Source of the DNA: Schmidtea polychroa | Lineage: Eukaryota | Assembly: GCA_044892525.1 (NCBI GenBank) | Contig: CM097885.1 | Span: 11,410,001 to 11,474,000 of the forward strand | Reading direction: 5' to 3' | Length of the DNA: 64,000 nt | In this document: positions 20,698 to 32,858 of the stretch, in pieces | How the letters are laid out: every line of letters begins with the position of its first letter | How positions within the stretch are numbered: the stretch's first letter is position 1 | The notes under the pieces: model-generated | Seen by the model: the letters and a program-made list of their open reading frames with translations, nothing else | What the model was told of the DNA's origin: nothing | Database searches by the model: none | Position numbers and translations under genes: made by a program

Positions 20698-21568
20698 TTA
20701 ATTTTTATTCATATATCTACAGAAAATATACATTATAACAACTCCAGTTGTAAGTTTTATATAGTTTTTCATTTTTCTTTTGATTTCATCAGTTTCTTTA
20801 AAATTGCAGGCCAGTTTATTTAATACACCCCATCCGCCATTGGCTTCTATCCATGGGGTAAACTTGGAGTTGATTATCTAGAAATGAATATTATTAAAAT
20901 ATAGATTATAAAAGAAATCCTACTTCTAAAGACCAATGATAATAATGTTCTGAATCATGTTGACCTTTTGCAATGATTATCTTCATGTAGGTGAATCCTA
21001 CAATTATCCTTGTCCATTTCATGTCTTCATCGAAAAGACACTGAAATATTCTATTGAAGTAATACTTCTTGGTTTCCAGGGATTCCGTCTCCATCATCTG
21101 CTGATAATCGATATGTTCACCTTCAATGATTTGTTCGGTTCGATTGATCAGGAAATTGAGGCTGTCGACTATATTCGCGGTGACAATTCCGTTTAGAACA
21201 TTTTCCATAAAATTTGGTTGCGACATTTCTAAAATAATTTAAAATATAATGTTTTTATTTATACTAATACCATATGATTTTGATTGGTTGATAGACTATA
21301 AATGTAAAAGAAAGGTTTTGATTTGATACACCATAAAAACTATATTGCTAATTATTATAACGAGTGTGTGCTAACACAATACCTTAATTTTATAATATTC
21401 GACTATGTTTTTTGTTAACCATGATTTGTGATAGAAATTATATAATAATAATAATATCAACAATAATAATAATAATAATAATAATAATAATATATGTTTT
21501 ATTACATTGTTTATTAATACTCTTGCGAGTTGTTGAGCGTGACCAGTACCCTTCTGAGCAGTACCCAT
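20698..21568 (-). CDS. Bcl-2-family protein, about 185 aa; exons 21568-21521, 21295-21271, 21228-20924, 20877-20698
   Basis: BH1-like LFDEDMKWTRIIVGFTY, BH2 WIEANGGW, C-terminal hydrophobic tail LTTGVVIMYIFC flanked by basic residues. All four exons join in frame; the first two exons are less certain. Confidence 0.85.
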
Positions 21569-24500
21569 AGGGGGACAGAATATTTTGTCGGATAGACTCG
21601 GAGTATATAGATTAATAATATATCAATGAGAACACTAACTTGTTGCGTGTGTGGACACTAATAATATTTTTATACATTGTGTGTGTGTGTGACCATAGGG
21701 GAACAGAATATTTTGTCGGGTAGACTATATTGTGTGTGTGTAATAATAATTTTATTTTATTAAACTTTTATCAATAAGTTTTTAAAATACCGCAACGTAA
21801 TATATTTAATAATTAAAATATAATAAATTTTAAAATACCGCAACGTAATATAAATTTTAAAATACCGCAACGTAATATATATTTTAAAATACCGCAACGT
21901 AATATAAATTTAAAAAAAAAATTTTAAAAAAATTAAAAAAAAAATAAATTAAAAAAAAAATTTAAAAAAAAATAAAAAAAAATACCCCCCCTCCCCGGGG
22001 GGTAGGGGGTATGACTCATATGTCTTTGTGACGTCATCGATGACGTCATATGTCTTTGTTCCCGGGTCCACACATTACCCTACTACTACTACTAATAATA
22101 ATAATAATAATATAATCTGACCCTTCTACTATAGTCTACAGTAAGCATGTAGCTATATAGTAGTCTGCAGTGAGCATGCAGCTACTTCTCTTTAATAATA
22201 ATAATAATAATAATAATAATAATAATAATAATAATAATAATAATAATAATAATAATAATAATAATAATATAATCTGACCCTTCAACTATAGTCTACAGTA
22301 AGCATGTAGCTATATAGTAGTCTGCAGTGAACATGCAGCTACTTCTCTTTTATAAAATAATAATAATAATAATAATAATATAATCTGACCCTTCTACTAT
22401 AGTCTACAGTAAGCATGTAGCTATATAGTAGTCTGCAGTGAGCATGCAGCTACTTCTCTTTAATAATAATCTTACTCGTCTAATATTTAACATATAATAA
22501 TCTGACCCATATACTAAAATCTCTCTGATATTCTCTATTAACCTATTTTCTATAAGGATTTATCATCATTTGTTATATAGTTCATTTGAATTAAATAACA
22601 AATGATGATAAATCCTTATAGATGTAACAATTAATAACAATTAGAAAAAAAGAAAAATCTTTAATTTTATTATTTAACAGGTAGACTATACCCAAATTAT
22701 TGTCAAGCTGCAAATGGACATAGCGATAAATGTCATCGCACAATGAAAAAGTACTACAAAAAGACGTTTAATTCCGTCAACTTTTTTATATGCCCCAAAT
22801 GCATGACTAGCGAAAAAATAAAATATAGGGAATTTTTTAATAAACATCATAGTCACTTAGGGCAATTTTCGATATCAAAAAATGTTTTATTTAAAAAAAT
22901 AAATAAAAAAAAATTACAAAAATATTTATCAAAAAATTTACCAAAAAATACTATTAAAAAAGATATAAAAAAAGATATTAAAAAAGATTTAAAAAATATT
23001 AAAAAAAATATTATAAAAGAAAAAACAGATTCTATTAAAAAAGATGCTATTATTATTAAAAAAGATACTATAAATATTATTAAAAAAGATATTATAAATA
23101 TTAAAAAAGATTCTATTAAAAGACCTGCTGGTTTAATTAAAAATTGCATTCCTAATAAATTATCGCGACCTGAAGTGGTAGTCATCAGCAAAGATGAATG
23201 TGTAGCTTCAACATCGTTTACACAACAAGCACCCATTACACAACAATCACCCATTACACAACAAGAAGTGATAGTCATCAATGATGAATGTGTAGCTTCA
23301 ACGTCTTTCAACATATGTCAAATAGGCGGCTCTTTGTTTGAACCAGTTGTTGAATCCGATTTGAATGGATCACGTAAAACTTTAAAATTTAATATAAGAA
23401 ATGAAAACCTGTTTAAAATAGCCCTAACATCAAAAATTGAAGAAAGATTAATAGAGGAAATAGAAAAGATGGGCAATGTAAAAATCCAATTTACAATTTT
23501 AATTAAATTTGAAAAAGATGGGGAGATCCGGGATAATTATTTTTCAAACAATGCGCAAGTTTTTTCAGCAAATTTTATAAACGAGGGGGTGAGCAAATTA
23601 AATGAAAAGATTGAGCAATTCACCTATTTAGGAAGCGGGTGGCGAGTAGTGAATATTTTAGAGATAGATTTTATTTTAACGAAATACGCACCCGTTAGTA
23701 GATTATCCGGACATAGCTATATAAAAACCCCATCGGCTTTAAAATTAAAACATGCAATAATTAACGTTAAAAACAACGACCATAAGTGTTTCTTATATAG
23801 CATTCTTGCACTTTTAAAAAGAGAAGAAATAGATCGTAATCACCAAAGAGCCGCCAAATATATAGAATTTTTACCTCTATTAAATTATGACGAAGACACC
23901 GATTGCCCGATGAGGCTATGTAACATTCCTAAATTTGAAAGGAAAAATCGTGATTTAAATTTAAGCATAAACGTTCTTTCGTATAATCCAGCCAGTACTG
24001 ATAGTGATATTTCTCAGGATTATGTAGCTCACCACCCTCATCTTAATATCATACATCGCTCCAAGGTTATAGATGGTAGGCCAATTTATTTATTACTTTT
24101 GAGTAATAAAGATAAATATCATTATACGGCCGTGACAGACTTGGACAAATTAATGAATTGCCATTTAAATGAAAATGTTAACGTTCAAATAAGGTGTAAC
24201 TGGTGCCCACATTGTTTAAATGGCTTTAGATATAAGAATGCTTTCGATCAGCATGTTGCTCTATGCTGTAAAAATCAGACTGGCACAACCTTGTATACAC
24301 TTCCTAAAAATAAGGATTTATTATTCACAGATTACGCAAAAACAGTTACACCTCCCTTCGTAATTTATGCCGATTTTGAATCGGTTTTACCAGAACATGA
24401 AACATATCATCAAATACATTTACCCATATCAGCAGGTCTTTTATTAATTAATAATTATACAAACACAAAATTTTATTATTATTTTTTTGGACCTAATTGT

Positions 24501-31400: not shown

Positions 31401-32858
31401 GCGACTGAGTCATGGTCTTTGTTTAAATTACCTTGGTAATTAAAATTTGATAATAATAATAATAATATTAATAATAATAATAATATTAATGCTATTGATA
31501 GTAATAAATAATATATCCCATGGGTGCGTCATTGTCTTTCTTCAAAAAATAAATGAGTCATCGATGAGTACTTTTGTATTGCCGTTTGTTTTCAAACAAT
31601 ATTGCTGCGAATAGTAGTACATCAATATTTAGTTTACCTTTGTTAATTTTATATTATTTTATTGTTTAAATAAATGTATGTTTTGTTGATTTGCTGATTT
31701 GTTGATTTGTTGAGCGTGACCAGTACCATTGTGAGCATTACCCATAGGGGGACAAAATATTTTGTCGGATAGACTCGGAGTATATAGACTCGGTGTATAT
31801 AGATTAATAATAATAATAATAATAATAATAATATTAATAATAATAATAATAATAATAATAATAATAATAATAATAATAATAATAATAATAAAAATAATAA
31901 TAATAATAATAATAATAATAATAATAATAATAATAATAATAATAAAAATAATAATAATAATAATATTAATAATAATAATAATAATAATAATAATAATAAT
32001 AATAATAATATCTTTAGAAATAATAATCTTAATAACAAGATATATGGCTCATTCGAAAGGCCTTGGATTGAGCTTTAAAATGAGCTATCGATTATTAATT
32101 TGCGTTGACGGGAACTTTGAAAATATTAAAAATAATAATATTTTTTTAAAATAATAATAAAAATAATAATATTTTTAAAAAATAATAATATGACCTTGAT
32201 GACTCATCGCGATGACTCATATGACCTTGAGAATGACCTTGGATGAGTCATGCGACCTTGGAAATGACCTCGATGAGTCATAGGGTGACTCAGATGACCT
32301 TGAAAATGACCTTGAAAGGTTTTATGGGTCATAGTATGAGTCATATGACCTTGAAAAATTTTTGATGAGTCATAGTATGAGTCATATGCCCTTGAAAAAA
32401 TTCAGTGAGTCATAGTATGAGTCATATGACCTTGAGAATGTCCTTGAATGAGTCATTTGACCTTGAGAATGACCTTGAATGAGTCATATGACCTTGAGAA
32501 TGACCTTGAATGAGTCATATGACCTGAAAATGACCTTGAATGAGTCATATGACCTTGAAAACGACCTTGATGAGTCATGGTCTTGTTTAAGTGACCTTGA
32601 AAAAAATTTTTTGCCCTGGATGAGTCATATCATGAGTCATATGACCTTGAAAATGACCTTGATGAGTCATAGGATGAGTCATGGTTTTTGTTTCAATGAC
32701 CTTGATGAGTCATATGTCTTTGTTTAAATTTGACCTTTAAAAAATGTACTTTTAGACTTAGAATATTTTTGAAAATCTTACCGACGGGGGGAGGGGGAGG
32801 GGGGTATGTCTTTGTCCCAGAGGGCCGCTGGTTTAGTGGGCCGCTATCCCTCTACTCT
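28493..32858 (+). mobile_element. Right arm of a third, related Maverick
   Basis: 32036-32805 is homologous to 27393-28445; ends CTCTACTCT; holds three copies of the promoter/leader cassette also found in Maverick-2. Confidence 0.8.
30210..30780. repeat. Minisatellite aataataatatgaccttgaa / aataataatattttgaa
   Basis: Alternating tandem units read directly. Confidence 0.9.

Follow-up and report, generated by a model that had tools for sequence, protein, structure and literature searches.

A repeated TATA module at the inner edge of Maverick terminal repeats in Schmidtea polychroa, conserved as DNA and likely an inward-facing promoter

Maverick/Polinton DNA makes up the first 33 kb of the stretch of Schmidtea polychroa DNA analysed here (the window: 64,000 nucleotides (nt) of contig CM097885.1, assembly GCA_044892525.1, positions 11,410,001 to 11,474,000 of the forward strand). 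One of these elements, Maverick-2, contains a Bcl-2-like gene on the minus strand, and between this gene and the right terminal inverted repeat (TIR) lies a module of about 90 base pairs (bp) that recurs further along the window. An earlier note on the same DNA, made from the sequence alone, had seen in the module a promoter joined to a coding leader exon, reused as an inward-facing cassette by which captured genes such as Bcl-2 would be expressed through splicing. Here, the copies of the module, their short reading frame, the Bcl-2-like gene and the RNA-like contigs that cover this locus are considered together (coordinates in Table 1). In the reading that we favour, with a probability of about 0.55, the module at the inner edge of the Maverick terminal repeats is conserved at the DNA level and is likely an inward-facing promoter for RNA polymerase II (Pol II) of a small unit of its own, and the Bcl-2-like gene is likely transcribed from its own TATA box.

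Four full copies of the module (A to D), all on the minus strand, share 83–94% identity across 79–101 nt, and the 20-nt pattern of their core has 4 matches in the window as against 0 in 100 shuffles, which bears out the repeat described in the earlier note. The anatomy given there also holds in that TATATA precedes the ATG by 41 nt in 4/4 copies, the ATG itself is present in 4/4, a GT directly follows codon 16 in three copies (A, B and C, not D), and a partial copy stands at the edge of the right TIR of Maverick-2; a second partial copy, unlisted in the note, was found in the left TIR, and the palindrome part of the module is found inside both TIRs. Of the full and partial copies, D alone has a perfect 16-nt palindrome: mismatched pairs number 0 in D, 1 in A, 1 in C, 3 in B and 2 in the partial copies, which makes it imperfect in 5/6 copies (4 full and 2 partial). 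Internal periodicity is significant in D alone (1/1000 shuffles; 186 for A, 624 for B and 59 for C). ATT tracts lie on both sides of copy C and on one side of copy D, which fits shuffling at microsatellites. The module is missing from the homologous Maverick arm ending at 28490, in which another palindromic repeat occupies the slot after the ATT tract, and scans with its exact pattern gave no match in viral contigs, JGI metagenomes or prokaryote genomes.

The four peptides that had been proposed as conserved are indeed read from the copies as given; what is conserved, though, appears to be the DNA that is read in this frame. Differences between copy pairs fall at codon positions 1, 2 and 3 in the numbers 16/16/15, the duplicated capsid gene, used as comparison, giving 3/5/16. 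The proportion of nonsynonymous differences (pN) equals or exceeds that of synonymous ones (pS) in 6/6 copy pairs. Alternative codons are used at 2/28 shared residues in the four divergent module pairs (69–76% nt identity) and at 63/128 between the C-termini of the two pPolB genes. Invariant columns amount to 34/41 upstream of the ATG versus 27/39 within the frame, and the word that stands at nt 1 and again at nt 16 of the frame occurs for a third time in the GT that had been taken for a donor. On a small sample, consisting of four related copies with 12–15 codons and non-independent pairs, every measure points to conservation at the DNA level and to no coding constraint on the peptide. Protein searches with the module frame (word search, profile against 1.84 billion representatives, ESM Atlas and Pfam) were blank, and no database protein starting with the peptide was found by word and profile search, such searches being weak for queries of 16–30 residues. 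The N-myristoylation signal that had been suggested does not hold up: the pattern applied, which we take to be of the PROSITE type (Gly2 and a small residue 6), fits 1/4 copies, namely D, the one without a donor, while A and B have Lys6 and C has Cys2. Just past the 3′ end of the Bcl-2-like gene, at 20616–20641 (–), there is a short Gly/Lys/His-coding stretch like the module frame, without the upstream part of the module.

The Bcl-2-like gene, in turn, seems not to need the module. Its start methionine is the same in seven relatives (62–97% identity), Met1 being invariant in 8/8 sequences, all these relatives being gene calls on short contigs rather than mRNAs. With exon 1 alone as the query, the Bcl-2 domain PF00452 is the only Pfam family match (E 8e-04; 20.4 bits, below the cut-off of 31.4) and occurs in 5/8 relatives, and the PDB profile matches are all to Bcl-2-related protein A1 (E 0.03–0.04); on these sequence grounds the Bcl-2 label is weak but consistent. 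Exon 2 contains a W..GGW stretch that we take to be BH2-like. No longer form of the protein was found in the search, which is weak evidence, and searches of viral contigs for related loci with the Bcl-2 and TBP-like proteins gave nothing. A gene follows on the same strand in 1/4 module copies, A, this being the Bcl-2-like gene. After copy B, neither strand of 28500–29310 yields a nameable gene, its 10 stop-free pieces having no Pfam hit below E 0.018; copy C is followed by a tandem array, copy D is without a donor, and no recognisable gene stands after B, C or D. The same interval, 28500–29310, is unique DNA of higher GC content, convergent with copy B, in which candidate short introns on the plus strand and frames with Cys residues are found.

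Splicing was examined on contigs of four of the 12 runs listed, X1, X2, X3 and X7, aligned at 85% likeness on 20450–21880, a region with copy A alone; such contigs stem from other copies, drop rare forms and cannot reliably show starts, ends or strand, loose ends were judged on 21 of 362 rows, and 10 X3 joints at repeats were left out. The 46-nt GT..AG intron of the Bcl-2-like gene (20923–20878) is removed in one contig each of X1 and X2 and in none of X3, so that X1 and X2 look like RNA runs and X3 like DNA. This joint is the sole one of the 10 listed that is supported in X1, X2 or X7. No splice joint from the module donor at 21521, which the earlier note had expected junction reads to reveal, is present in the X1, X2 and X7 contigs over copy A, and the five RNA loose ends listed downstream of the module (21515, 21518, 21541, 21544 and 21562) do not include 21521. 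The in-frame splice to Bcl-2 that had been claimed fails as a direct event, since joining 21521 to the AG that precedes the Bcl-2 ATG does not keep the reading frame; it is available only via a middle exon of 25 nt (21295–21271) and a 42-nt intron, 5/39 of the GT..AG routes with one middle exon being in frame and stop-free. One X2 contig (record 13) covers 21382–21226 without a splice, across the proposed acceptor at 21296 and donor at 21270, and ends in a 15-letter A-run that is untemplated by the window and lies 33 nt from the AATAAA at 21259. This A-tail ends within 0–3 nt of the AG that precedes the Bcl-2 ATG, a coincidence explained more simply by the TATA word of the gene overlapping AATAAA. 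The case that the earlier note had named as refuting its proposal, a Bcl-2 mRNA starting downstream of 21300, seems the likelier one. A loose end at 21382 is common to X1, X2 and X3, and therefore many copies differ in their DNA upstream of this point; from 21382 to 21500 the copy in the window may not be typical. The gap in coverage at 21410–21505 in X1, X2 and X7 was not used as evidence. Among the X3 contigs, four connect the module to 20547–20558, skipping Bcl-2, and others show single or duplicated modules.

Of the expression cassette that had been proposed, the promoter half fits the anatomy, from which a promoter is plausibly inferred (fixed TATA spacing, upstream word arrays, inner edge of the TIR), and the splicing onto captured genes is unsupported. 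The module has the fixed position of TATA relative to the start codon that marks a TATA-dependent Pol II promoter, its 41 nt standing beside 34 nt in the TBP-like gene, 33 in the packaging ATPase, 42 in the capsid gene and 37 in Bcl-2; as background, a TATA word at such spacing precedes 67/1345 ATGs (5%). The TCAAGGTCA words, 48/49 on the minus strand, all 49 fall within 26741–32860, where TGACTCA is clustered likewise, and each Maverick-2 TIR holds two TGACGTCA words; we presume that the array words resemble nuclear-receptor, AP-1 and CRE sites. Dense TCAAGGTCA arrays mixed with TGACTCA and AACAAAG words occupy 27400–28420, 30200–30790 and 32200–32750. TATAAAC stands upstream of the ATPase at a distance of 33 nt, of an ATG at 1271 at 23 nt and of the capsid start at 42 nt, and the module and the TBP-like gene use TATATA, in contrast to the TATAAAC of the ATPase and capsid genes.

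Several points weigh against this promoter reading. A TATA word 30–45 nt upstream is found in just 3/10 other Maverick starts, and TATA-like words are common in AT-rich DNA. The A-tailed transcript, which in this reading would start at the module, is a single contig from another copy (8 other letters, 7 gaps), in which the A-run could be templated; X1 and X7 contigs reach upstream of the TATA word, and so read-through or DNA is present; the RNA status of X1, X2 and X7 was guessed, the spliced intron backing X1 and X2; and the X3 module joints are single contigs at 85% likeness with 23–41 letters on the short side. Finally, the ATG is retained in 4/4 copies, and overlapping DNA sites could freeze the codons of a genuine peptide.

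Such retention agrees with the original proposal of a promoter and coding leader exon spliced onto captured genes, Bcl-2 among them, with the addition of an N-terminal peptide that is possibly myristoylated. In favour of this proposal, which we nevertheless consider improbable, are also the GT past codon 16 in 3/4 copies, the donor context of copy B, which is like that of the candidate introns in the spliced genes of these elements, the AG 2 nt before the Bcl-2 ATG, and the in-frame route itself, introns of 36–51 nt being normal here. The existence of one such route is unremarkable among 39, however, and the X2 contig runs unspliced across the micro-exon; together with the missing joint and loose end at 21521, the lack of coding constraint and of database proteins with this beginning, the absence of genes after B, C and D and the confinement of the myristoylation pattern to D, this argues against a leader exon. 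An E4-like common leader whose peptide is irrelevant, cis-spliced to several acceptors, or else a host spliced leader added at a Bcl-2 acceptor that abuts the upstream poly(A) site, is very doubtful. The closeness of the X2 A-tail to the AG would suit it, as would the joining of the E4 common leader to different acceptors (PMC7851563), the trans-splicing of planarians and the abutting poly(A) and trans-splice sites known from SL1-type operons of C. elegans and from Ciona operons (PMC12582326); but in the operon pairs of S. mansoni the gap is at least 5 nt in 45/45 tested (PMC12582326), the TATA/AATAAA overlap accounts for the coincidence without splicing, a direct splice would leave the module ATG out of frame upstream of the Bcl-2 ATG, and neither such a joint nor a loose end upstream of 21228 is found among the rows listed.

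Two further explanations leave the leader aside. The module might be a cis-element of Maverick ends (auxiliary origin, packaging signal or integrase site) or a hitch-hiking subterminal repeat, with ATG and frame incidental, which we regard as rather unlikely. Conservation at the DNA level and the palindrome within both Maverick-2 TIRs speak for it, and X3 shows tandem, single and internally deleted forms of the module, at a summed depth 20–70 times that of Bcl-2, a figure that gives no copy number and was not used to rank expression. It leaves the fixed TATA-to-ATG spacing, within the range of genes of the same elements, unaccounted for, and sits badly with a palindrome imperfect in 5/6 copies and with the arm ending at 28490, which is without the module. 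A small structured non-coding RNA gene, similar to VA RNA or to a spliced leader, would be suggested by the length of about 90 nt, the multiple copies, nucleotide conservation, palindrome, ATG and GT words and contig cover in X1, X2 and X7; it is largely refuted, and we give it hardly any credence, because the module folds no better than shuffles (z –0.96 to +0.47, 8/8 folds, both strands), an Rfam scan of the window gave no match, and, as regards the spliced-leader RNA genes of flatworms, ATG directly followed by GT and an Sm-like motif each occur in 0/4 copies when exact motifs are sought, with no stable fold.

In the promoter reading that we prefer, the arm would be arranged as an enhancer array, an ATT tract and then an inward-facing promoter of a short unit dependent on the host TBP. 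Host factors would bind the repeated words of the arm, the TATATA of the module would be read by host TBP, and transcription would start some 30 nt further on, close to the palindrome. Protein-binding sites may be formed by this palindrome and by the two or three words of the GGGTA(C/T) type, the third word supplying the supposed donor GT, and the short frame after the ATG would drift freely. The upstream transcript would be cleaved at the AATAAA that overlaps the Bcl-2 TATA box, ending where the Bcl-2 promoter begins, and copies of the module would multiply as the arm, rich in repeats and ATT, undergoes slippage and recombination. A bolder proposal, and quite an unlikely one, is that Mavericks of this lineage carry in their terminal repeats a portable early promoter heading an E4-like right-arm unit, in which several downstream genes would share one leader, either through alternative splicing and polyadenylation or through trans-splicing by the host at an acceptor directly adjoining the poly(A) site upstream. 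If so, a newly captured gene would be expressed on arrival, and a shared leader or trans-splicing would explain cargo expression and link the RNA processing of Mavericks to that of adenovirus.

The E4 unit of adenovirus is oriented inward and has ATF/CRE-type sites. E4 mRNAs have a common 5′ leader spliced to different acceptors (PMC7851563), and the module, as a likely promoter, shares with E4 its place close to the right-hand terminal repeat in a linear, protein-primed DNA element; unlike in E4, a common leader to several acceptors was sought here and none was seen in the contigs, and the module is tandemly duplicated and followed by variable, mostly non-coding DNA. Adintoviruses and animal Mavericks have the same set of pPolB, integrase, packaging ATPase and adenain protease, and Bcl2 and IAP homologues have been reported in adintoviruses (Starrett et al., 2021, PMC8502044), a Bcl-2 homologue being an accessory gene here too. 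In the available text of that article the strings "splic" and "myristo" do not occur and no repeated promoter module is described, and in Maverick-2, as compared with adintoviruses, Bcl-2 lies downstream of and convergent with pPolB, with an intron shown to be spliced. The nematode Maverick cargo genes wasp and krma (bioRxiv 10.1101/2022.07.12.499685) are likewise intron-bearing, host-like cargo in a variable region beside the TIR, and the core genes of vertebrate Mavericks are intronless (PMC8097293). Flatworm spliced-leader RNA genes are, like the module, short multi-copy units with an ATG and a nearby GT (PMC12582326), from which the module differs in that its ATG is not directly followed by GT, and in lacking an Sm-like motif and a stable fold. 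Further background is given by reports of TATA boxes in 5% of planarian promoters (PMC10558129), planarian trans-splicing (PMC10899757), Polintons under piRNA control (PMC8532177) and Maverick expansion in Dugesia (bioRxiv 10.64898/2025.12.11.693146). No paper on a Maverick promoter or leader module was found by title or start of abstract, subscription journals and supplements being outside the search, and Maverick gene transcription is little described in the literature searched. As the spliced Bcl-2 contigs show, transcription extends to the accessory genes of Mavericks, and a candidate promoter that is short, high in copy number and sharply bounded, together with its word arrays, offers a handle for mapping early Maverick transcription; on present evidence the module is a useful annotation of a kind of feature to be expected, not a new mechanism.

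Table 1. Features of the Maverick region, in positions of the window.
Feature	Position	Strand	Remarks
Module copy A	21521..21609	–	TATATA 21609–21604; imperfect 16-nt palindrome 21589–21574; ATG 21568; 16 codons; GT at 21520
Module copy B	29315..29403	–	ATG 29362; unspliced frame of 18 codons to stop; donor-like context best among A, B and C
Module copy C	30822..30910	–	ATG 30869; Met-Cys start; ATT tracts on both sides; followed by 38–41-nt tandem array
Module copy D	31704..31801	–	ATG 31745; TATA part duplicated (15 nt); perfect palindrome; no GT after codon 16; 28-codon frame
Partial module copy, palindrome to ATG	21693..21726	–	Inner edge of Maverick-2 right TIR; 128 nt upstream of copy A
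Partial module copy	14310..14335	+	Maverick-2 left TIR; cut directly past the palindrome, where it joins the 3′ part of the major capsid gene
Bcl-2-like gene, coding exon 1	20924..21226	–	101 codons; own ATG
Bcl-2-like gene, intron	20878..20923	–	46 nt, GT..AG; removed in X1 and X2
Bcl-2-like gene, coding exon 2	20698..20877	–	In phase; AATAAA at 20709
TATA word of Bcl-2-like gene	21257..21263	–	37 nt before ATG; overlaps AATAAA; within the 42-nt "intron" of the leader model
Upstream transcript, likely 3′ end	21226..21382	–	One RNA-like contig, unspliced; A-run at 21226–21229; AATAAA 21259
Maverick-2 left TIR	13970..14335	+	358/364 aligned nt identical to right TIR
Maverick-2 right TIR	21701..22096	–	Two TGACGTCA words; ends in AGT repeats
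Outer Maverick right arm	26960..28490	–	Word array homologous to that of the 32856 arm (81% over 735 nt); palindromic repeat other than the module
Tandem array between copies C and B	30200..30790	–	13 TCAAGGTCA words
Arm of right-end-like terminus (32856)	32200..32856	–	TCAAGGTCA and TGACTCA array upstream of copy D
TBP-like open reading frame	99..536	–	Pfam TBP E 1.6e-15; head-to-head with packaging ATPase

As regards the elements themselves, Pfam matches above the cut-off were obtained for DNA_pol_B_2 (two pPolB genes), Pox_A32 and Peptidase_C5, and one below it for rve (E 1.1e-05). Together, pPolB, the retroviral-type integrase, the packaging ATPase and the adenoviral-type protease make up the gene set of a Maverick/Polinton. 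The open reading frame at 10024–11244 has no Pfam hit and is presumably the capsid gene, as its place in the gene order suggests; a capsid search in metagenomes returned one 1.1-kb contig of 40% identity, which was not used. Maverick-2 is an internally deleted element that retains just pPolB, the protease and part of the capsid gene. As in other Mavericks/Polintons, its TIRs are long and begin with AG(T) repeats. It is inserted in an AAT tract of a tandem array, and because this array continues on both flanks, Maverick-2 is nested in a larger element with its right end at 28490. AAT tracts also stand at the target site on both flanks, so that a 6-bp duplication is indistinguishable from the repeat. 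For neither the end at 28490 nor that at 32856 does the window contain an inverted partner.

Palindromic tandem units of a second family, with AAT tracts between them, lie at 13720–13965, 22094–22490 and 26960–27165; they make up the array that received Maverick-2, and a related unit occupies the module slot of the 28490 arm. Directly after the palindrome, at 14335/14336, a fusion joins the left Maverick-2 TIR to the final portion of the capsid gene. Small Maverick genes on the plus strand, at 12246–12920 and 15697–15970, have candidate introns of 46–51 nt and acidic or Asn-rich exons, with TATAAAC 78–85 nt upstream. At 2270–8010, a 5.7-kb insert splits the integrase gene, with ATT tracts at both ends and an identical six letters on each side.

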